Positions 40,933 through 51,455 of a stretch of 54,796 nt of DNA are shown piece by piece. A program made the translations under genes and the position numbers. The notes below the pieces were generated by a model that ran no database searches, was not told where the DNA came from, and was given only the letters and a program-made list of their open reading frames with translations. The stretch is taken from positions 1-54,796 of IMG/VR virus record IMGVR_UViG_3300044820_000106; one strand, written 5' to 3'. The first letter of the stretch is position 1; the number at the start of each line of letters is the position of its first letter. The stretch comes from a virus (Duplodnaviria > Caudoviricetes).

Positions 40933-42378
40933 ATGGCCACCGACGATTTTTCGCCAGACGCCAACACGCCGACTCGCCGCAAGACGAAGGCGCTGGACAA
41001 CACCGCGTACCTCAACAGCCCGGTGCCGGGCCCGCCGACGAGCGCCTACGATTACGGCCAGTCCGCGCGCGCGGGCGTCGGCACCATTGCGAGCACGGTC
41101 GTCGACGCCAACAAGGCCGTCGGTGGCGCCATGCTTGATCAGGCCAAACTGCAGGCCGCGCCGGTCGTAGAGGGTGCGCGCGGGCTCGCTGATTTTGCGC
41201 GCGGCGCCGCCGGCATCTCGCCCGCGCCGGCCGCGCCCGCGCCGACCGCACAGAGCAATCCCGCGCCGGCCGCGCCGCCCGTCATGTCAGGCGTGACCTC
41301 GACCGCCGTGTCCCAGCCCGCGAACCGATTCTCAAACGTGGGCGCGGCCGCGTCGACGCAGCCCGGCGCCTCGAGTCGCGCGTCGTTCGCGCGCAGCCCG
41401 GGCGACAGCTCGAAGGGCATCGACAACCTGATCGGCAGCGGCGTGGGCGCGGTCGTCAACGGCGTGCCGACCTTCACCTATGACCCGAAGACCGGCGGCA
41501 ATATCGGCCAGCCGTACGTCGACCGCACAAGCGCCAGCCCGTCGACGCCGTACACGGGACCCGAGGGCGGCGTCGCATCGGCCGCCACCGGCCGCGGCGG
41601 GCTCGCCGGCACGATCACGCAGGAACAGGGCGTGCGCGCCGCCGGGCTCGGCTCGCTCCCGGGCGGCAGCTCGACCGTGCAAGGCGGCAACGAATACGAT
41701 CCGGAGGCCGCGCAGCGCGGCGCCGCGTCCGACGTGGCCAGCATCCTCAGTAAGGATCCGCGGTCGACGCTGGGCCGGGCCGCGTGGAACGCTGGCGTCG
41801 ACCTGAACCACCACGGCGCGCGCTCGCGCTCCGGCTCGGCGCCGTCCGAGTACCAGACCGCGATCGGCGGCCTGCTCGGGCAGGTGCAGTCGAACCTGCA
41901 GGCCGGCCATCAGGGCGCGCTCGCCACACAGGCCGAGGGCGCGGCCGCCGGGCGCCAGAATTCGCAGCAGAACTTCGATCTCGCCAAGCTCAACACCGAG
42001 ATCGCGGCCAAGCAGGGCGAGCAGGGCACCTACCAGACCGACGCGAACGGCAACCTGTTCCGCGTGTCCGGCACGAGCGCGACGCCCGTGTCCGGTATCG
42101 GCGCGCTGCCGACGCAGCAGGGCAAGGGCTTCACCGAGGCCCACGCCAAGCTGTGGGATTCGCTCAACAACGAAACCAAGCAGGACGAGACCGGCAAGAC
42201 GGTGCCGCTGAGCTATGATGAACGCGTGCAGAAGTTCAACGCTCTGCTGAACAACGGCACCGCTGGAAGCGGCGCCACGACCTCGAAGACCGCCGGGACC
42301 GCGACCGCAACCGCGAAGGACGGTACGAAATTGAAACTCTCCGCTGACGGCAAGTCGTGGGTGAAGGCGAATGGCTGA
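40933..42378 (+). CDS. Internal virion / ejection protein candidate
   Basis: Gly/Ala/Ser-rich; precedes the giant protein. Confidence 0.7.
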   Translation: MATDDFSPDANTPTRRKTKALDNTAYLNSPVPGPPTSAYDYGQSARAGVGTIASTVVDANKAVGGAMLDQAKLQAAPVVEGARGLADFARGAAGISPAPAAPAPTAQSNPAPAAPPVMSGVTSTAVSQPANRFSNVGAAASTQPGASSRASFARSPGDSSKGIDNLIGSGVGAVVNGVPTFTYDPKTGGNIGQPYVDRTSASPSTPYTGPEGGVASAATGRGGLAGTITQEQGVRAAGLGSLPGGSSTVQGGNEYDPEAAQRGAASDVASILSKDPRSTLGRAAWNAGVDLNHHGARSRSGSAPSEYQTAIGGLLGQVQSNLQAGHQGALATQAEGAAAGRQNSQQNFDLAKLNTEIAAKQGEQGTYQTDANGNLFRVSGTSATPVSGIGALPTQQGKGFTEAHAKLWDSLNNETKQDETGKTVPLSYDERVQKFNALLNNGTAGSGATTSKTAGTATATAKDGTKLKLSADGKSWVKANG

Positions 42379-45300
42379 CAACGGCCTGCCGCCGCTGCCC
42401 GACGGCGCCACGCTCGACACGCACGACAGCCTGCCCCCGCTGCCGTCCGGCGCGTCGCTCGACAGCGCGCCCGCCAAGCCCCGCGCGCGCGGCGCGCTGG
42501 ATACGCTGAGCGATCTCGGCCAGAGCGCGTACGGCGCGGCCCAGCACGGTCTCGGTTCGATCGTGCGCGGCGTCGGCGAGTACACCGGGCTCAACGGCGT
42601 GCGCGACGTCGGCAAGGGCATGGCCGAGTCCGGCACGATCAATCAGGAAACGACCTCGCCGGAATTCCGCGCCGAGACGTCGAAGGGTCTGCTCGACTCG
42701 GGCGGATTCACCGGCACGAACGTCGCGCGCAAGTCGCTCGATTCGCTGGGCGAAATGTTCGCTCCGGTGGCCGCGTCGGCGATCACCGGCCCCGCTGCCG
42801 CTCCCGTCGGCGCCGCACTGTTCGGCGCGCAGGGCCGTGGCGCTGGCGCGGAAGAGGGCGAGAAGCAAGTCGCCGCCATGAAGGACGAGCAGCTGGCCGC
42901 GGTCCCGCGGTATCAGGAACTGCTGAAGTCCGGTCTCGACCCGGCGGCCGCGCGCGCGCAACTCTCCGACGAAGTCGCGAGCCGCGTCGGCAACGTGCAG
43001 GGCGCGTTCGGCGCCGCGCTCGGTCTCGCCGGCAAGATCCCGGGCATCTCGCAGCTGTCGTCCGCGGTGGGCTCGAAGCTTGTGCAGCCGCTGGCGCGCG
43101 GACTCGGCGGCGAACTGGCGCGCCCGGTCGCGCGCACGCTCGGCGAGGCCGCCGGCCAAGGCGTCGCGTTCCCGGCGATCAACGCCGCCGGCTCGGTCGT
43201 CGGCAACGTCACGAATCCGATCGACACCGACCCCGGGCAGGGCGCGCTTGAGTCGGCCGCATCCGGCGTCATCCCCGGTATCGTCACCGGCCTGACCCAC
43301 GGCCTCCTCAACGAGCGCGCCATGGGCGCGCGCACGCGCAAGGCCCTGAGCGACCTCCCGCCGCCCGCCGCCCCGCCTGCGCCGCTACAGCTCGGCTACG
43401 AGCCGGATTACACGGTCGACAGCCAAGGCCGCGCGATCTACAACAAGGGCGACCGCAACCTCGGCCGCCCGCTCGGCGGCAAGGGCATGGAAGAGCAGGC
43501 CCCGACGCCGGTCACCGGATTCGCCGGCATGGGCACGCTCTCCGGCCAGACGCCGGCCGAGTCCGCGCTCAGCTATCTGCGCGACTTGCACGCGAGCACG
43601 CCGCCCGGCGGCGCTGTCTCCGACGACACGCAGGCCGCCATCGCGCGCACGACCGCCATGGCGAAAGCCGCGGGCGCCAGCGACGAGGACATCGCCGCCG
43701 CGCACAGCACGCCGCCGACGCCGGCTGACGTGGAGCGCGCGCAGGGAAAGCCGGTCGGCCCGATCGCCGGAGCGCTCGAGGCCGTTCCCGAGTCGACGAT
43801 CGAGTCGCAAGCGGTCGAGGCGAACACGCCCGAGCCGACGCCGGAAGAGCAGAAGGCCGCCGCGGCCGCCGCGCCGTTCAAGAGCAACTATCTCGACGGC
43901 GCGCCCGCGCGCGCGGAAGGCGAGGACGACAAGGCCTACGTCAACCGCGTCGTGCGCAACCTGCCGACGCCGACCGCCGAGCACCTGCCCGACGACCCGT
44001 CGCTGTACTTCAACGAGCAGGACTCGCACCGCGAGCCGATCAACAACCTCAAGCCGAGCAGGCCGCAGGATCTACTCGATCAGCGGCAGGGCCCGGCGAA
44101 GATCATGGCGTCTGCCGCGGCCGGCGCGATTGCCAAGCGCGAGCCGCTGTCCGTGCGTCAGGAAGCGGACGGTTCGTACACCGTGCTCGACGGCAACGGC
44201 ACCTACAACGCGGCGAAGAACGCCGGGTTCAAGGAGCTGCCGATCCGCGTCGATCAGGTGGCGGCCGAGGACGGCTGGCGCGACGCCATCGCGGCGCACA
44301 AGGATCTGACCCCGGACGCGAAGAATGGGCTCATCGCCAAGTTCGAAGAAGCCGAAGCGGTCAAGCCCGTGTTCGATCGCACGCTGGTCGACCTGACGCA
44401 CGAGCTGGGCCTGCCGGATCCGAAGCTCGCGCCGATCAAGGGCGTCGCGCGCACGGCAGAGAAGACCGCGACCGAGTACGACAACGACCCGTCGCGGATG
44501 CGCGACATCGTGCGCGGCACGATCACGGCCAACACGCCCGAGCAGGCCAAGTCGCTGATCGACACGCTCAGGCAGCGGTTCAAGGTGACGGCGGTCAAGG
44601 ATTCGATTTCGCCCGGCACCGAACCGCGCGGCGCGACCGGATACCGTGACGCGAACCTGACGGTCGAGATCAACGGTCACCCGACCGAGATTCAGATCTC
44701 GACGCCGGAGATGCTGGCCGCGAAGAAGCTCGGCCACAAGCTCTACAAAGAGCAGCGCGCGATTGAAGCGCAGGCCAAGCTCGAGAAGCGCCCGCTCAAC
44801 GATGACGAGCAGGCGCAGGTGACGCGTCTGGCGCAGCAGCAGACGAAGCTGTACGCGGACGCCTATGCCGGCGCGCGCGGCGCCGAATCGAACCCGGCTG
44901 CCTTGAAGGCCGACTCGCGCTCGCCGGGCGACGTCAACTCGGACGTGCCGCCTGTTTTGGACAACGGCGAGTCGCGCTTGACCGGCCAAGACTTGCCGCC
45001 CTCGAAGCCGAGCATGTCGACGCCGTCTCCGAAGCCGGAAGGGTTGAACGCGAGCAAGCCCACCGCGTCGTCCGAAAAGAACCGGGTGCCGGCGGGCAGC
45101 GAGCGTGGATCTGCTGAGCGTGGATCGAATGACATTGGTAAATCCTCTGAAGGAAGTGTACCACAAAATACCGATGATAAACTGTCTGTCGCCAGTTCTG
45201 GCGGCATTATTCCGCCTGTGCGTGGCGGCAAAAACGAGCCCGCGCACGTGGAGCGCCTGCGCAATTCGCTGTTCAAGGATAGCAAGATCGGCAACGCGCT

Positions 45301-48300
45301 GCGCCGTCTCGAGCTGAGCGGCGGCCTGCGCATTGTCGACGAGCCCAGCAACGTATATTCGGGCAAGTTCGAAAACGGCAAGCTGATCCTTAACGCGCCG
45401 TACCTCAACGACCGCACCGCGCTGGGCGTCGCCCTGCACGAAGCCGGCCATGCTGAGAAGGCCGGCGGCTCGCTGCGCGCGTTCGTCGGCCACGGCGAGT
45501 TCGACAAGCTCACCGCGCGGCTCGACGAGATCAAGAAGGCCGGCGGCCGTGACGCCGATCTCGTCCGCAAGGCCGAGGCCCGCGTCGAGAAGGCGGGCAC
45601 GAAGCCCGAGCACGCAGCTGAAGAGCGGCTGATGTACTTCATCGAAGAGGCCCGCAATGCCGAGACGGGCGGCACGATCAGTGATAAAGTGCGCGGTACT
45701 CTGCGGCAGATTTACGCGTCGATCAAGGCGGCGCTGTACAACTCGCCGCTCGGCAAGTACCTGAAGAAGGCCGGCATCGAGCTGAACGCGAGCGACTACG
45801 TTGCGCTCGCCGAGGCGGCCGTGCGTCGTCAGGCCAACGAATCGATGCGCGCGAACGGCCTGACGCCCGAGCCGCTGTACAGCAAGGGAGCTACCAGTGA
45901 AAAACGAACCGACGCAGGACGAGGATCTGATGCTGCCGGCGCACGAGGCGTATCTGAAGTGGGCAAAGGGCAAGGGAAGGGATGGAACGAAAAGCCCGTC
46001 CACCCCAGCGCCATCGCCGTCGACGCCGTCCACTACTCAACCCAAGCAGGACTGACCAAGCTCCTCGGCCGCAAGTACGGCACGAACCACGCGGGCGCCG
46101 AGCGCGCGCGTGTGTCCGATGGCGGCATTGCGAACCGCGTGTACTTCTACCCGAAGGATTCGCCGCTGGCCGCGCGCGGCGAGTCGATGGTCGGTCGCGC
46201 CGCAAAGTACGAGCAGCGGCTCAACAACATGTACGACATGCGCACCGATCCGCTGGATCTGCGCGACAAGGCCGACGCGGCCGAGAAGCGCGGCAAGGAC
46301 TGGAACAACGCGCTCGACAAGGCCGTGGTCGATGCCGGCTTCGACGGCTTCCGCACGCACGACATGGCCGTCGTGCTCGGCTCGAAAAACGGCGTCGACG
46401 TCAGCGCGCCGAAGTACTCGAAGCCGACCAAGGAAACGGTCGCCGAGGTGCTGGGCGAGCGCGCGAAGTACCTGACGTCTGACGAATTCGCCAAGCAGCG
46501 CGTGGGCACCGCGAAGAAACTCGTCGAGCTGATGAGCAAGCTGCCGGATGCGAAAGAGATGGCCAGCGTCGCGCTCGCCGGCAAGGCCAAGCGCGGCTGG
46601 TACAAGGACAGCGCCGACGCGATCCTGTCGACCTTCGGCACGAAGGACGCGCCGCGCTTCGCCGCGCTGCTGTCCGCGCTGTCGCCGCAGACGAGCGTCG
46701 AGAACAACCTGCTCAACGCGCTGCACACGTGGAAGAACTGGGACGCCGCCGGCCGGCCGACCGACAAGGCCGCGATCGTGCGCGTGCTCGGCAAGTCGGT
46801 GCAGGGCAACAAGGGCGAGGACAGCGTGCTCGGCGCGTGGATCAACAACAGCGTGCGCGCGCTCGGCGATCCGGATCCGAGCAAGACGACGCTGTCCGGC
46901 CCGAAGGTCAACAGCTTCATGAACAACCTGCGCGGCGTCGTCGACGAAGTGACGAACGATGCGTGGATGGCCAACTACGCGCTCGTCGACCAGACGATGT
47001 TCTCGGGCTCCCTGCTGCCCGGCTCGAACGATCCCGGCAAGCGCCCGGGCTACGTGGCCATGAGCGCGCGCACGCGCGAGGCCGCGGCGCACCTGACGAA
47101 GATCACGGGCGAGAAGTGGACGCCGGCCGAGGTGCAAGAGACCGTGTGGTCGTGGGCCAAGACCGCCTACGAGCTGGCGTCGAAGACCGGCGAGTCGGTC
47201 GCCGACCTCGTGAAGTCGGGCAAGATCACCGACGACCTGATCAAGTCCACCCCCGCTTTCGGAGAGCTGTTCAATGCAGACCAATACCGATCCATCCTCG
47301 AGTCCGCAGGACTCAACCCAACTCGCGGTGCAGATCATGCAGCGAGCGGACAAGCCGAACCCCGCGCTGCAGGCGAAGCAAAAGCGGCTGCTGACGTTGC
47401 TCCGAAAGCAAAGCACCTCCAGCAAGCCGCCGGCCGCCTCGACGCTCTGAGGGCGCAGCGCGCGTCCGCAGAGGCCAAGTTCTCGATCCCCGACACGGTC
47501 GGTATCGCCTACCCGGGCGACATCGGGAAAGAGAAGGACCGCATCGCGCAGCGGCTGTTCGAACAGCCGTACAGGCAACTGGCGCCGGACGATCGCGAAC
47601 TGGTCGACCAAGCGCACCAGACGTCGTCGGCCGAGGCCAACCGCATGTACTCGGTGCCCGCGGTCGCGACGCCCGCACGCGCGCAGCAGACCGGCTCGAA
47701 CCTCAAGGACGCGATGGCGAAGATGCGCGAGATCGGCCGCGGCATCATCCGCTCGTCGCTCGCGATTCAGGACCGCGCGATCGGCACGGCCGACGCAGCG
47801 CTTGAGGGCTGGCGCACGGCGTTCGACAAGCGCGCGCGCAGCATCCTCAACGACCCGAAGCTCGCGCTCGCCCCGGTCATCGACTACCAGAACGGGCGCC
47901 CGGTCGACGCGCGCGTGAAGCCGTTCTTCGACACGATGTCGAACATGCTCGACAAGCAGGTGGCCGAGATCCACTCGTTCGGCAAGGGCTACCTCGAGGG
48001 CCTGATCGAAAACTACTACCCGCAGCAGTGGAAAGATCCCGCGCGCGCCGAAGACTTCTACAAGACCTTCCTCGGCAAGCGCCCGATCGCGGGCGACAAG
48101 TCGTTCATGAAAGAGCGCGTGTTCAAGGACTACGAGGCCGGCATCGACGCGGGCTTCGAGCCGGTGTCGCACAACCCGGTCGACATGCTCATGGCGCGCT
48201 ACCAGAGCGGCGAGAAGCTGCTCACGTCGCTGCGCATCATGAAGGAGATGGAAGACCGCGGCCTCGCGAAGAAACTCGCGAACGACGAGCGCGTGCCGAA

Positions 48301-50107
48301 AGGTTGGTCTCGCGTGAACGATCACACGTTCGACACGTACATCGTGCCCGACCAGATCGCGCGCGACCTCAACAACTACCTCGACCCCGGGCTTAACCGG
48401 TTCGCCGCGTGGCGCGGCTTCCGCTGGATGCAGAATTTCCTGCTGACCTCGCGACTCGGCCTGTCGGCGTTCCACGCCGGCATGACGACGCTCGACTCGC
48501 TCTCGAGCCACATGGATCTCGCGTGGCGCGGCGCGCTGCGCGGCGACCTCGGCGGCTCCCTGCGTCAGCTCGGGCATGCCGCGCTCGCGCCTGTGACGGC
48601 CGTACGCGAGCTTGCCGGCAAGGGCGAGGGCAGCAAGCTGCTTCGCCAGTGGTACGGCAAGGCCGCGATGGACGTGCACACCGAGGCGATTCTGCGCGCG
48701 CTCACCGAGGGCGGCGCGAATGCGAAGATGAGCGCGACCGACTACAACAACAGCCTGCACCAGTTCACCCGGGCGTGGAGCCAGCGCGACCTGAAAAACC
48801 TGACGTACACGTCGGTGCCGGCCGCGATGGAAGCCACGACCGCGCTGATCGCGCACCGGCTCGTCCCGGCGCAGAAGATGATCGCGCGCGTGCACCTGCT
48901 GAAGTTCGAACTGGACCGCATCGCCGGCCAGCTCGGCACGGCGAAGGGCGACTACGCCGACACGATCGCGAAGATGAACACCGACACGCTGCGTCAGGTC
49001 GCGTATCGCGTGAACGCCGACGTCGACGATCGCCTCGGCCAGTTCAACTACAACAACCTATTCTGGAATAAAACGTTCCGCGACGCGCTGCACGCGTCGG
49101 TGCAGTCGGTCGGCTGGAACTTCGGCACCCTGCGCCTGCTCCTCGCGGGCGGCGCCGACGCGCGCGACATCGTCAAGGGCGGCAAGGACTACGTCGCGCC
49201 GCTCGACAAGGCCGGCAACATCACCGACAAGAAGATGAGCCGGCTCACGAACCGGCTGGGCTACCTGATCACGCTCAACGCGGTCGTCGCCTCGCTCGGC
49301 GCGATGACGCAGTACGCGCTCACGGGCAAGGGTCCCGAGGAAATCCGCGACTACTTCTTCCCGAAGACCGGCCGCAAAAACAACGACGATACCGACGAGC
49401 GTCTGTCGTTCCCGTCGTACGTGAAGGACGAATGGGAATTCCGCCACCACCCGATCACGACGCTGCAGCACAAGCTGCACCCGTCGCTGTCGATGATGGC
49501 CGAGCTGTACAACAACAAGGACTTCTACGGCAACCAGATCTACGATCCGGAAGCGAACATCCCCGAAGAGGCCAAGCAGTTCATGACCTACCTCGGCAAG
49601 AGCATGCTGCCGTATTCGGTCACGGGCGCGGCCAAGAACGCGTCGACCGGCAAGTCGACCGCGATGACGATCGCGCCGTTCTTCGGCGTCACGCCCGCGC
49701 CGGGCTCGGTCACGAAGTCGGAATTCCAGCAGTACGTCGCCGATCGCCACTTCGGCCAGCAGAGCAACGAGGGCCGCTCGGTGAAGAGTGCCGAGTCGAG
49801 CCACGCGTTCAGCGACGCGCTGCAGGCGATGCGTCTGGGTCAGCCGGTCGACAAGACGCAGTTCTCGAGGGGCCAGCTCGAGGCGATGCAGCGGATGATC
49901 AGGACGCCGATGCCGCAGTCGTATTTCGGCAAGCTGCCGTTCGATCAGCAGATGCACGCGCTCGAGATCGCGACGCCGCTCGAGCGTCAGAAGTACGGGC
50001 TCGAGCGCACGATGCGCAAGGGCCTGTCGAGCTACCTGTCGAAGCTGCCGCCGTCGCAGCGCGCCGAGGTGCGCGACAAATTCAACGAACTGGTATCGAA
50101 CCGCTAA
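42371..50107 (+). CDS. Giant polyvalent virion/ejection protein: ParB-like, RelA/SpoT-like nucleotidyltransferase, zincin peptidase, HhH-glycosylase-like and helical C-terminal domains
   Basis: YTVLDGNGTYNAA (about 44020-44260); IKGVARTAEK, RDIVRG, GYRD, EIQI, HKLYK (about 44340-44860); LHEAGH (about 45435); GWY, ALSPQ, GPKVNSF, VTNDAW, EVQETVW (about 46560-47250). Confidence 0.88.
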   Translation: MADNGLPPLPDGATLDTHDSLPPLPSGASLDSAPAKPRARGALDTLSDLGQSAYGAAQHGLGSIVRGVGEYTGLNGVRDVGKGMAESGTINQETTSPEFRAETSKGLLDSGGFTGTNVARKSLDSLGEMFAPVAASAITGPAAAPVGAALFGAQGRGAGAEEGEKQVAAMKDEQLAAVPRYQELLKSGLDPAAARAQLSDEVASRVGNVQGAFGAALGLAGKIPGISQLSSAVGSKLVQPLARGLGGELARPVARTLGEAAGQGVAFPAINAAGSVVGNVTNPIDTDPGQGALESAASGVIPGIVTGLTHGLLNERAMGARTRKALSDLPPPAAPPAPLQLGYEPDYTVDSQGRAIYNKGDRNLGRPLGGKGMEEQAPTPVTGFAGMGTLSGQTPAESALSYLRDLHASTPPGGAVSDDTQAAIARTTAMAKAAGASDEDIAAAHSTPPTPADVERAQGKPVGPIAGALEAVPESTIESQAVEANTPEPTPEEQKAAAAAAPFKSNYLDGAPARAEGEDDKAYVNRVVRNLPTPTAEHLPDDPSLYFNEQDSHREPINNLKPSRPQDLLDQRQGPAKIMASAAAGAIAKREPLSVRQEADGSYTVLDGNGTYNAAKNAGFKELPIRVDQVAAEDGWRDAIAAHKDLTPDAKNGLIAKFEEAEAVKPVFDRTLVDLTHELGLPDPKLAPIKGVARTAEKTATEYDNDPSRMRDIVRGTITANTPEQAKSLIDTLRQRFKVTAVKDSISPGTEPRGATGYRDANLTVEINGHPTEIQISTPEMLAAKKLGHKLYKEQRAIEAQAKLEKRPLNDDEQAQVTRLAQQQTKLYADAYAGARGAESNPAALKADSRSPGDVNSDVPPVLDNGESRLTGQDLPPSKPSMSTPSPKPEGLNASKPTASSEKNRVPAGSERGSAERGSNDIGKSSEGSVPQNTDDKLSVASSGGIIPPVRGGKNEPAHVERLRNSLFKDSKIGNALRRLELSGGLRIVDEPSNVYSGKFENGKLILNAPYLNDRTALGVALHEAGHAEKAGGSLRAFVGHGEFDKLTARLDEIKKAGGRDADLVRKAEARVEKAGTKPEHAAEERLMYFIEEARNAETGGTISDKVRGTLRQIYASIKAALYNSPLGKYLKKAGIELNASDYVALAEAAVRRQANESMRANGLTPEPLYSKGATSEKRTDAGRGSDAAGARGVSEVGKGQGKGWNEKPVHPSAIAVDAVHYSTQAGLTKLLGRKYGTNHAGAERARVSDGGIANRVYFYPKDSPLAARGESMVGRAAKYEQRLNNMYDMRTDPLDLRDKADAAEKRGKDWNNALDKAVVDAGFDGFRTHDMAVVLGSKNGVDVSAPKYSKPTKETVAEVLGERAKYLTSDEFAKQRVGTAKKLVELMSKLPDAKEMASVALAGKAKRGWYKDSADAILSTFGTKDAPRFAALLSALSPQTSVENNLLNALHTWKNWDAAGRPTDKAAIVRVLGKSVQGNKGEDSVLGAWINNSVRALGDPDPSKTTLSGPKVNSFMNNLRGVVDEVTNDAWMANYALVDQTMFSGSLLPGSNDPGKRPGYVAMSARTREAAAHLTKITGEKWTPAEVQETVWSWAKTAYELASKTGESVADLVKSGKITDDLIKSTPAFGELFNADQYRSILESAGLNPTRGADHAASGQAEPRAAGEAKAAADVAPKAKHLQQAAGRLDALRAQRASAEAKFSIPDTVGIAYPGDIGKEKDRIAQRLFEQPYRQLAPDDRELVDQAHQTSSAEANRMYSVPAVATPARAQQTGSNLKDAMAKMREIGRGIIRSSLAIQDRAIGTADAALEGWRTAFDKRARSILNDPKLALAPVIDYQNGRPVDARVKPFFDTMSNMLDKQVAEIHSFGKGYLEGLIENYYPQQWKDPARAEDFYKTFLGKRPIAGDKSFMKERVFKDYEAGIDAGFEPVSHNPVDMLMARYQSGEKLLTSLRIMKEMEDRGLAKKLANDERVPKGWSRVNDHTFDTYIVPDQIARDLNNYLDPGLNRFAAWRGFRWMQNFLLTSRLGLSAFHAGMTTLDSLSSHMDLAWRGALRGDLGGSLRQLGHAALAPVTAVRELAGKGEGSKLLRQWYGKAAMDVHTEAILRALTEGGANAKMSATDYNNSLHQFTRAWSQRDLKNLTYTSVPAAMEATTALIAHRLVPAQKMIARVHLLKFELDRIAGQLGTAKGDYADTIAKMNTDTLRQVAYRVNADVDDRLGQFNYNNLFWNKTFRDALHASVQSVGWNFGTLRLLLAGGADARDIVKGGKDYVAPLDKAGNITDKKMSRLTNRLGYLITLNAVVASLGAMTQYALTGKGPEEIRDYFFPKTGRKNNDDTDERLSFPSYVKDEWEFRHHPITTLQHKLHPSLSMMAELYNNKDFYGNQIYDPEANIPEEAKQFMTYLGKSMLPYSVTGAAKNASTGKSTAMTIAPFFGVTPAPGSVTKSEFQQYVADRHFGQQSNEGRSVKSAESSHAFSDALQAMRLGQPVDKTQFSRGQLEAMQRMIRTPMPQSYFGKLPFDQQMHALEIATPLERQKYGLERTMRKGLSSYLSKLPPSQRAEVRDKFNELVSNR
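44863..45135 (-). CDS. Nested antisense gene (90 aa) directly after the RelA/SpoT domain; candidate antitoxin
   Basis: AGAGGA RBS 7 nt before ATG; upstream extended -10; host frame becomes Ser/Pro-rich with TCG/CCG/TTG codons. Confidence 0.65.
   Translation of the reverse strand: MSFDPRSADPRSLPAGTRFFSDDAVGLLAFNPSGFGDGVDMLGFEGGKSWPVKRDSPLSKTGGTSELTSPGERESAFKAAGFDSAPRAPA
45155..45180 (-). promoter_or_regulatory. Intragenic promoter with early-type operator
   Basis: TGTGG-TACACT extended -10 and TATCATCGGTA (45169-45179) in an AT-rich island. Confidence 0.6.
45897..46055 (+). CDS. Nested +1-frame gene (52 aa) after the zincin domain
   Basis: AAGGGAG RBS then GTG; MKNEPTQDEDLMLPAHEAYLKWAKGKG...; GC3 bias switches to the +1 frame. 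Confidence 0.6.
   Translation: MKNEPTQDEDLMLPAHEAYLKWAKGKGRDGTKSPSTPAPSPSTPSTTQPKQD
47274..47450 (+). CDS. Nested +1-frame gene (58 aa) after the glycosylase-like domain
   Basis: GGAGAG RBS then ATG; MQTNTDPSSSPQDSTQLAVQIMQRADKPNPALQAKQKRLLTLLRKQ...; GC3 bias switches to the +1 frame. Confidence 0.6.
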   Translation: MQTNTDPSSSPQDSTQLAVQIMQRADKPNPALQAKQKRLLTLLRKQSTSSKPPAASTL

Positions 50108-50241
50108 AGTCTACGGCGCCGCGCCTGCAACAGGCGCGAGCAACCCCACACGGCGCCGCAGACCAATCCCCAGAGCAACACCCAGTACCCACCATAGCCG
50201 AGCACGATCGGCACCATGATCGCCGCGAGGACCGCGTACAT
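50104..50241 (-). CDS. 45-aa membrane peptide
   Basis: Below cutoff; TGATG-coupled to rtcB; MYAVLAAIMVPIVLGYGGYWVLLWGLVCGAVWGCSRLLQARRRRL. Confidence 0.6.
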   Translation of the reverse strand: MYAVLAAIMVPIVLGYGGYWVLLWGLVCGAVWGCSRLLQARRRRL

Positions 50242-51455
50242 CACCCTTTTACGCAGACGACTTGCTTGAGCGTGTGCACGACCTCGACCAGATCTTCCTG
50301 CGCGGCCATCACGGCGTCGATATCCTTGTACGCGGCCGGCGTCTCGTCAAGCACGCCCTCGTCCTTGCGGCACTCGACGCCCGCCGTTGCGGTCGCGTGA
50401 TCCTCGAGCGTGAACTTGCGCTTCGCCTCGCCTCGTGACATCGCGCGCCCGGCGCCGTGCGAGCACGAGTGAAACGAATCGCGGTTGCCCTTACCGCGGA
50501 CGATGAACGACTTCGCGCCCATGCTGCCGGGGATGATGCCCAGCTCGCCCGCGGCCGCGCTCACCGCGCCCTTGCGGGTGACGTGCACACGCTCGCCGAA
50601 GTGCTTCTCTTCGGAGATGTAGTTGTGGTGGCAGTTCACCGCGGACTCTTCTGCGACGAAGACCTTGCGCACGGTCGCCGCGAGCGCATTCATTGCGGCG
50701 TCCATCATCTCCTCGCGGTTCGCGCGCGCGAAGCGCTGTGCCCACGCAACGGCTCTGCGATAGTCGTCGTAGTTCTTCGTGCCCTCCGGCAAATAGGCAA
50801 GGTCTTCGTCAGGCAGATTGATGAACCACCTGCGCATATCTTCCTTGGCGCGCTCGATGAAGTACGAGCCGATTCGGTTGCCGATGCCGCGCGATCCGGA
50901 GTGCAGCATCACCCAGACCCGCTGCTCTTCGTCTAGGCAGACCTCGACAAAATGGTTGCCCGTGCCGAGCGTGCCAAGTTGATGGCCAGCGCGGTCAGCG
51001 GCTTTCGATATCGACGGGTGCATCATGACGATGTCATCGAGATCTGCGATCAGATCTCCGGTGTTGACACTCCACTTCGAGACTCTCCACGCGCCGCGAT
51101 CGTTCACGCCGCCGTTGTCGGTCCTGCCGTGCGGGATCGCCTTTTCGATCGCGGTGCGAAGACCGAGCAGGTTGTCCGGCAAGTCGGAAGCGGTCAGCGT
51201 CGTGCGCAAGGCCATCATGCCGCAGCCGATGTCGACGCCCACGGCCGCTGGGATAATCGCGCCCTTCGTCGCGATCACGCTGCCGACGGTCGCGCCCATA
51301 CCCCAGTGCACGTCCGGCATCGCGGCCACGTGCCGGTGGATGAACGGCATGTTCGCAAGGTTGAGCAGCTGCTGCTTGGCCGAATCCTCGACCTGTACGC
51401 CGCGCGTCCACGCCTTGATCGGCAGCCGGGCGCCATCGAAAATTTCAAACGACAT
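50241..51455 (-). CDS. rtcB: RtcB RNA ligase
   Basis: MPDVH, VGVDIGCGM, LGTLGTGNHF, HSGSRG, HHNY, IPGSMG, SCSHGAGR, DETPAAYK. Confidence 0.97.
   Translation of the reverse strand: MSFEIFDGARLPIKAWTRGVQVEDSAKQQLLNLANMPFIHRHVAAMPDVHWGMGATVGSVIATKGAIIPAAVGVDIGCGMMALRTTLTASDLPDNLLGLRTAIEKAIPHGRTDNGGVNDRGAWRVSKWSVNTGDLIADLDDIVMMHPSISKAADRAGHQLGTLGTGNHFVEVCLDEEQRVWVMLHSGSRGIGNRIGSYFIERAKEDMRRWFINLPDEDLAYLPEGTKNYDDYRRAVAWAQRFARANREEMMDAAMNALAATVRKVFVAEESAVNCHHNYISEEKHFGERVHVTRKGAVSAAAGELGIIPGSMGAKSFIVRGKGNRDSFHSCSHGAGRAMSRGEAKRKFTLEDHATATAGVECRKDEGVLDETPAAYKDIDAVMAAQEDLVEVVHTLKQVVCVKG

Follow-up and report, generated by a model that had tools for sequence, protein, structure and literature searches.

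Overprinted genes are a known kind of gene in phages. In phage lambda, the small gene Rz1 is contained completely in the larger gene Rz; it is read from the same strand in the +1 frame and has a ribosome-binding site and start codon of its own. In phiX174, the genes E (in D), B (in A) and K are overprinted in a tiny genome under size pressure. The present analysis concerns an open reading frame (ORF) of 58 codons plus a TGA stop (47274..47450, plus strand) in a 54,796-nt stretch of phage DNA, the whole of which is called the window here (positions 1 to 54,796 of IMG/VR record IMGVR_UViG_3300044820_000106; Duplodnaviria; Caudoviricetes). This ORF is nested in the +1 frame of a giant ORF (42371..50107, plus strand, 2578 codons), where it overlies a module of the family DUF7178, and it is very probably a real protein-coding gene overprinted on a giant polyvalent-protein gene. 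The family of the nested ORF is absent from Pfam, from PHROGs and from the papers that were found.

The nested layout of 47274-47450 is shared with Rz/Rz1. However, Rz1 is a secreted lipoprotein with a lipobox cysteine and belongs to a lysis cassette, whereas none of the 55 members of the family aligned here has a cysteine (the longest hydrophobic run is 10 residues), and the host gene would encode a polyvalent protein and not a spanin; an Rz1-type o-spanin was ruled out because the lipobox cysteine is missing from these 55 members. With overprinting of the phiX174 type, the locus shares a younger frame written over an older one, a new protein placed where the older one is disordered and a constraint that alternates between the frames. 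In contrast to phiX174, the phage genome here is at least 55 kb long, and the gene sits inside one mobile domain that is shuffled among multidomain proteins. Ugi of PBS2 and p56 of phi29 are acidic DNA mimics aimed at the host uracil-DNA glycosylase, and they offer a parallel as small phage proteins acting on a DNA glycosylase, the kind of role proposed for the nested product in an earlier reading of the bare sequence (the original prediction). Unlike Ugi and p56, the nested family is mostly basic (median isoelectric point (pI) 9.7) and not acidic, and it would act on the phage's own enzyme. In polymorphic toxin systems, a toxin domain is reportedly accompanied by an adjacent immunity gene, and the likeness lies in a small gene kept physically tied to one enzymatic effector domain; here, however, the tie is an overlap within the coding sequence of the domain itself, and some modules lack the small gene. 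Polyvalent proteins, finally, were proposed by Iyer et al. 2017 (PMC5512222) to be injected together with the DNA.

The start region of the nested ORF is as the original prediction had described it. A Shine-Dalgarno (SD)-like GGAGAG (47261..47266, plus strand), whose main-frame codons read F-G-E, lies 7 nt before the ATG (47274-47276), with the spacer ctgttca at 47267-47273 between them, and the 58-amino-acid +1 frame ends at the TGA at 47448-47450. The ATG is made from a main-frame AAT-G and is the earliest start codon within the open +1 stretch, which begins at 47241; the ORF thus lies wholly inside the longer one, on the same strand and in a different frame, as an embedded gene does. The relatives described below share these properties: an ATG start was present in 54 of the 55 members, made by a main-frame NAT-G (TAT in 33, AAT in 8, CAT in 7 and GAT in 6), and an SD-like tetramer occurred within positions -18 to -5 of the start in 40 of the 55, against a rate of 0.12 at random positions of the same loci. 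At a conserved A-G-Y site, the tyrosine codon was TAT in the 12 loci whose ORF starts there and TAC in the 10 loci that have this tyrosine and either another start or no ORF. The nested gene appears, from these signals, to have a start codon and a ribosome-binding site of its own. Near the nested ORF, neither an Rfam match nor a promoter-like site was found, the RNA fold at the start was ordinary (z = -0.18), and the one terminator-like site, on the minus strand, was at chance level. Because a promoter-like site, an Rfam family and an unusual fold were all lacking, translation would start inside the giant gene's own mRNA; ribosomes would begin at the SD-like site and ATG of the nested gene within the long late mRNA of its host.

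The phage genome has a GC content of 65% in the window, and the GC content at the third codon position (GC3; GC1 and GC2 for the first and second) of the main frame amounts to 0.887 for the giant ORF as a whole, with values of 0.95-1.00 immediately before the nested ORF. Between 47261 and 47440, it drops to 0.42-0.47 in 40-codon windows, while GC1 climbs to 0.78-0.88. The turn of the main-frame codons to A/T endings over this interval, which the original prediction had noticed, was thus borne out, GC3 dropping to 0.42 from some 0.95. When the nested interval is read in the +1 frame, its GC1/2/3 values are 0.55/0.52/0.80, so that this frame takes on the ordinary coding phase of the phage (0.66/0.48/0.89). 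The same fall, of 0.26-0.44, was seen in all 16 of the ORF-bearing relatives with an upstream GC3 of at least 0.79. In four modules that lack the ORF (L020, L021, L097 and L107), the dip was merely 0.05-0.12; since the ORF-less modules dip so shallowly, the deep dip accompanies the ORF and not the loop of the module as such.

Close relatives were sought with blastn and tblastn against the phage collection, and no match was obtained. Pattern scans recovered 27 viral and 3 genomic loci with modules 42-67% identical to that of the window, and all relatives used in this work have a module identity of at most 67%. Three of these loci fall short of the region and four repeat others, which leaves 24 distinct modules including that of the window. 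In these, the main frame is conserved on either side of the centre of the ORF (TPDFxxLF..YxxILExAGYG upstream, HLxRAAxRLExLR downstream) and variable between; because it is conserved on both flanks, the main frame is genuine and the ORF lies inside the module and not after it. The +1 peptides of 21 of the 24 modules could be aligned (alignment A1); L020 and L021 lack the peptide, and L011 has a short, doubtful one. A metagenome scan then provided 325 confirmed relatives of the module, 80 of which were kept as a held-out set for a profile test. The hidden Markov model (HMM) of A1 matched 72 of these 80 new loci, with 89 of 89 domain matches in the +1 frame and none in the main or +2 frame. Counted as new clusters (less than 90% identical to the training modules, n = 41), 34 gave a positive match (E < 1e-3) and 2 a weak one, whereas 5 were negative; among the negative ones, L074 and L086 look like divergent members, and L097 and L107 lack the peptide. 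An ATG was present in all 34 positive clusters.

The combined alignment (A3) has 55 members from loci with a GC content of 0.42-0.71, so that the check on homologs named in the original prediction came out in favour of the +1 frame, which 55 diverged relatives keep. Lys35 is present in 55 of 55 members and Leu39 in 53 of 55, within the motif P-E/A-L-x-A-K-Q-x-R-L-L-x-x-L, which is preceded by a hydrophobic helix. The conserved residues are encoded by several synonymous codons (CTG/TTG/CTC, AAG/AAA and CGG/CGC/CGT). The ORF-less modules L020, L021, L097 and L107 (the output for L108 was the same as that for L020) have a loop of similar length, 53-58 codons; in a quick tree, unrooted and of low support, they are scattered among the ORF-bearing modules, to either side of the midpoint root, a pattern suggestive of losses of the ORF.

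Selection on the two frames was compared in 13 disjoint pairs of relatives over the loop core, i.e., nt 47322-47411 of the window. The differences in the core fell on the three positions of the +1 codons as 53/69/107, and changes that were silent in the +1 frame alone came to 0.331 per site, those silent in the main frame alone to 0.198 and those altering both frames to 0.132. The ratio of nonsynonymous to synonymous change (dN/dS) in the core was 0.40 in the +1 frame (p = 3.5e-9) and 0.67 in the main frame (p = 0.013), with the changes silent in +1 exceeding those silent in the main frame (p = 0.0012). In the tail of the ORF, the relation was reversed, with a dN/dS of 1.01 for the +1 frame and 0.39 for the main frame. 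Conservation and GC content both vary with a period of three bases, in phase with the +1 codons, the third position of the main frame being AT-rich and the most conserved one. Of the six frames read across the core, only two, the +1 and the main frame, had no stop in any of 53 relatives, whereas stops interrupted the antisense frames in 13-38 of 53; here the +1 frame had an identity of 0.369, the best antisense frame one of 0.305 and the main frame one of 0.241. Synonymous resampling of the main frame gave a z of 12.3 for the +1 similarity at 47273-47452, where the +2 frame reached 5.4, and the observed +1 score was reached in 0 of 150 simulations with each of three sequence sets. In all-pairs local alignments, the main frame lost its usual lead in the variable part, where the +1 frame outscored it in 147 of 276 pairs; in the control blocks, this happened in 0-2 of 253-276 pairs. 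Chance falls far short of explaining the switch of codon phase or the conservation in relatives.

A number of points nevertheless weigh against the nested ORF as a real gene or restrict what the tests can say for it. The +1 frame of the window stayed open in 42% of 5000 trials in which the main protein was held fixed and the synonymous codons were redrawn, so that an open frame by itself is worthless as evidence in GC-rich loci. The resampling test is inflated by shared ancestry, since eight control tests already gave z values of 3.5-6.1. The all-pairs alignment of the 24 modules is not decisive when scored per residue (main frame 0.92, +1 frame 0.98, +2 frame 0.85). Several of the alignments were built on the +1 peptides, which favours the +1 frame, although the core block is gapless in 53 of 55 members, and the start codon of each member was chosen by us as the ATG nearest to the first position of the profile. 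The small protein had no Pfam or PHROG family in the library searches, its predicted hairpin fold is only moderately confident, and we infer its translation from sequence features.

The explanation to which the first of these points leads is a chance ORF in GC-rich DNA, the conservation of which would be a by-product of an Ala/Gly/Glu-rich linker. The probability of an open frame, P(open), was scored for 18 loci and reached 0.33-0.95 in the other high-GC ones; 33 ORFs of at least 40 amino acids overlap 44000-50000, and a neighbouring off-frame ORF, P0154, is compositional junk. However, the relatives of low GC content are open against the odds (P = 0.012 in L012, 0.016 in L018 and 0.048 in L006), and the +1 frame is open or nearly so throughout the loci of 42-53% GC, where the odds are 0.012-0.086. 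Together with the purifying selection on the +1 frame, the AT-rich and strongly conserved third positions of the main frame, the restriction of the held-out profile matches to the +1 frame and the missing deep dip in the ORF-less modules, this makes a chance ORF extremely unlikely. Constraint from a conserved nucleic-acid element (an RNA structure or a regulatory or packaging site) or from an antisense gene is the least credible of the explanations considered. An antisense ORF of 952 codons (46037..48895, minus strand) does span the region, and it shares its wobble position with the +1 frame, but conservation and GC content are periodic over three bases in the +1 phase, no Rfam family, promoter-like site or unusual fold was found near the nested ORF, and the antisense frames are interrupted in many relatives and score lower. 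This antisense ORF is in register with the main-frame codons, as the usual shadow of a high-GC3 gene, and was rejected as a candidate; it has stops over the core in 13 of 53 relatives.

A programmed frameshift from the main frame, without an independent start, would instead produce a shortened polyvalent protein ending in the hairpin peptide. Some loci are +1-open well upstream of the ATG (137 codons from stop to stop in L001 and 106 in L028), but in L002, L003, L006, L012 and L018, a +1 stop precedes the ATG by only four codons, so that there is scarcely any space in which a frameshift could lead into the ORF. The ATG of 54 of the 55 members, formed through otherwise rare T-ending codons, and the frequent SD-like site also speak against it, as do the ordinary RNA structure and the aligned codons, in which no conserved slippery site was noticed. 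We regard frameshifting as very unlikely, and retain the reading of an overprinted gene with its own start.

The original prediction had also leaned on a second independent instance of the same design, and this was not supported: no other frame shows a coding phase there, and no credible relatives were found. Two further GC3 dips exist in the giant ORF, at 45038-45320 (to 0.33) and 45818-46070 (to 0.45), in low-complexity linkers with a lower overall GC content; in neither is there a frame with coding-like GC3, the best being 0.64 and 0.69. The +1 ORFs of these dips, P0156 and P0155, as well as P0154, have no family and no credible relative in 124 loci, and a scan for relatives of 44288-46501 returned one distant locus. 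P0154 (+1 ORF, 45450-45632, beginning at a HEAGH motif) is rich in Arg, Pro and Ser and matches many loci on both strands, which marks it as compositional junk.

The DUF7178 module occupies 46493..47485 of the main frame (plus strand; amino acids 1375-1705); in the prediction, an all-alpha core is followed by a disordered loop and then by a C-terminal helix. The alignment of 23 modules (A2) has a mean column identity of 57%, and the AlphaFold2 (AF2) model of the module is all-alpha, with a predicted local distance difference test score (pLDDT) of 87.9 and a predicted template modelling score (pTM) of 0.85. The best VIA-align match was 3n0u_A (Z 9.7, root-mean-square deviation 3.8, 185 of 209 residues aligned), and rows 1-22 were all enzymes of the HhH-GPD type, the earliest unrelated-looking row (rank 24) having a Z of 4.9; a helical model can, however, gain such Z values by its general arrangement alone. 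The HhH-GPD glycosylases with a fold like that of the module include Tm1821 Ogg (3n0u), EndoIII-3 (8a5g), MagIII (1pu6), MutY and AlkA, at Z 9.7-5.8 over 151-217 aligned residues, whereas no link at the level of sequence was found. The module also has an invariant Lys/Asp pair, 18 residues apart around a putative helix-hairpin-helix-like element. In a Foldseek search against the PDB, no match reached E <= 1e-3, 3knt_C being the highest-ranking glycosylase (E 0.77, probability 0.82), and sequence-profile searches of the PDB with the module gave no glycosylase at E up to 10, the only Pfam family being DUF7178. The description of the domain as glycosylase-like is therefore kept at the level of the fold and dropped as membership by sequence profile; on the model, an HhH-GPD glycosylase-like fold for DUF7178 is supported at fold level.

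The lysine of this pair (A2 position 138, motif SGPKV; 46904..46906, plus strand) is invariant in 23 of 23 modules and lies in helix 137-146, at the start of the second helix of a putative helix-hairpin-helix in the model. The invariant aspartate (A2 position 156, motif TNDAWMA; 46958..46960, plus strand) follows 18 residues further on, at the N-terminus of helix 156-163, so that the predicted helices 114-125, 137-146 and 156-163 are arranged around the invariant SGPKV and TNDAW. In HhH-GPD enzymes, the helix-hairpin-helix is followed by a Gly/Pro-rich loop and a catalytic Asp, with a Lys as well in the bifunctional ones; K138 and D156 may correspond to Lys120 and Asp138 of EndoIII.

The nested ORF had been placed directly after the glycosylase-like domain, but it sits over a loop inside the module and is followed by the conserved C-terminal helix. 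The predicted disordered main-frame loop (47318..47407, plus strand; A2 residues 276-305) is variable and weakly constrained, with a pLDDT below 50 at residues 280-297 and a main-frame dN/dS of about 0.67, and the +1 core is written over it. The main-frame C-terminal helix (47408..47482, plus strand; motif HLxRAAxRLExLR), which is docked in the model at residues 306-330 with a pLDDT of 93-97, underlies the unconstrained Ser/Thr/Pro-rich tail of the +1 peptide. The codons of the predicted hairpin would thus lie exactly over the disordered loop between the glycosylase-like core and the C-terminal helix, and because they do, the constraint alternates along the DNA, with the main frame constrained at both ends and the +1 frame in the middle.

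The small protein has 45-112 amino acids in the 55 members (median 61), and its pI is above 8 in 36 of them and below 6 in 11. In the window, the product would be about 58 amino acids long and, as is usual in the family, basic; a two-helix hairpin would follow a disordered N-terminus and lead into a loose tail of Ser, Thr and Pro. The part that encodes the predicted helical hairpin (47304..47417, plus strand) corresponds to residues 11-48, i.e., helix 11-25, a turn and helix 30-48 with the invariant Lys35. The AF2 model, made with the 55 sequences, has a pLDDT of 72 and a pTM of 0.34, with the block of residues 31-40 reaching 90. The basic amphipathic stretch LQAKQKRLLTLLRKQ pointed out in the original prediction is present and is the most conserved part of the +1 peptide. 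Mimicry of the module's C-terminal helix by helix 2 was considered and rejected (hhalign of A3 against A2, probability 0.15).

Note that in some lineages the +1 ORF is longer, with 110-140 codons (L007:3749-4084 and L079:2294-2626; proteins P0007, P0021 and P0122), and the extension shares the stretch …E-A-D-G-x-R-A-E-A-L-R-R-L-x-V-R-R-L-F…; the nested protein may also come in a longer form. In P0033, a protein of 197 amino acids from a public library, an unrelated, ordinary-looking N-terminal region of about 110 amino acids is joined to the small-protein motif, and P0033 could be a fused or free-standing form of the small protein; a scan with it recovered the motif part alone, in 13 further loci. 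Called small proteins of this family formed 187 clusters at 50% identity among 1.84 billion representatives, and a word-index protein search for the small protein found 2 called proteins only. The best look-alike of the small protein in the ESM Atlas scored 0.85, which is under the useful range. The literature search found no paper mentioning "DUF7178", and the search on phage overprinting found none on the nested gene; one paper containing both "polyvalent protein" and "overlapping gene" was set aside as unrelated on its title and the start of its abstract.

As to function, we tentatively prefer a small protein that binds or guards the DUF7178 module, or its polyvalent carrier, in the virion-producing cell, while holding this possible rather than probable; the preference is drawn from the retention of the nested gene in every domain architecture. 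A more specific form, in which the small protein is a built-in guard that keeps an injected glycosylase-like effector harmless to the phage DNA while virions are being made, close to the inhibitor of a DNA-damaging domain that had been suggested, is rather unlikely. The alternative is a real gene with a function unrelated to DUF7178, i.e., an accessory protein that arose by overprinting where the main frame, being a disordered loop, tolerated it, and that has its effect on something else, such as a target in the host or a late stage of phage development; taken as one whole class, such roles come to somewhat less than an even chance. Among the overprinted proteins of viruses, accessory factors with no relation to the older frame are common. 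In keeping with an unrelated role, the conserved core sits on an unconstrained, disordered loop of the main frame, and in the profile comparison the small protein resembled no part of the module. The invariant Lys and Asp persist in lineages that lack the ORF (L020 and L021 within A2), which favours an unrelated role and counts against a partner, and co-inheritance is uninformative on function because the physical overlap forces linkage. Set against an unrelated role are the purifying selection found in every architecture and GC background, which is most simply understood if the role travels with the module, and the fact that no positive evidence points to any other target. The prediction of a complex between the module (A2) and the small protein (A1) gave scores of 0.01 and 0.11 against a mark of 0.32, which speaks neither for nor against binding. 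An obligatory antidote would be present with every module, and the sequences argue against such a role: L020, L021, L097 and L107 lack the ORF, copies elsewhere having been sought within flanks of 1.5-3 kb. A partner or guard of the module remains our preferred, though tentative, reading.

The giant ORF, known from its translation, is the final gene of the structural block, with the terminase, portal and major head genes upstream at 17.8-25.4 kb. In the 2578-amino-acid protein, DUF7178 is the only Pfam domain above the threshold (amino acids 1408-1594, E 6e-9), the matches to ParB_N and RelA_SpoT being sub-threshold. In the relatives, the proteins that carry the module have ART-PolyVal, LPD22/23/38, GNAT and InPase domains above the threshold, and their domain sets and orders differ. 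Judged by its predicted domains, the giant gene is of the polyvalent-protein class, with several unrelated effector-type domains in one polypeptide, and its product may be associated with the virion. The host gene and its relatives share the multidomain make-up described in the main text of PMC5512222, namely, ART-PolyVal, LPD, GNAT, InPase, RelA/SpoT-like and zincin-like parts. In that main text, the words "overlap", "frameshift" and "glycosylase" are absent, and neither the nested gene nor an HhH-GPD-like domain is described. The HEAGH motif (zincin-like HExxH) is found at amino acid 1023 of the giant protein (nt 45437-45451). Directly past the giant gene, on the opposite strand, lies a gene for an RtcB-type RNA ligase (50241-51455, minus strand; PHROG 1075, E 7e-151), and homologues of RecT, RusA and NinB/Orf occur elsewhere in the window.

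The nested ORF would represent a gene family that annotation has missed in hundreds of uncultivated phages, where gene finders call the peptide only sporadically. In GC-rich genomes, such genes can be sought where the GC3 of the main frame drops sharply over a short stretch and a different frame takes over the coding phase, the signature that picked out the nested ORF. The overprinted gene rides within a single mobile domain into different multidomain architectures, and it offers a clean natural example of a constraint that alternates between two frames. For DUF7178, the analysis provides a predicted fold, one like that of the HhH-GPD glycosylases, together with an invariant pair of Lys and Asp and a candidate partner; if this partner regulates the enzyme, it would be a new type of glycosylase regulator. 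Should the small protein prove to be a guard, domain shuffling among polyvalent proteins could never part the weapon from its safety catch, and the locus would stand for a general design, a domain with an embedded partner, that is invisible to annotation pipelines.

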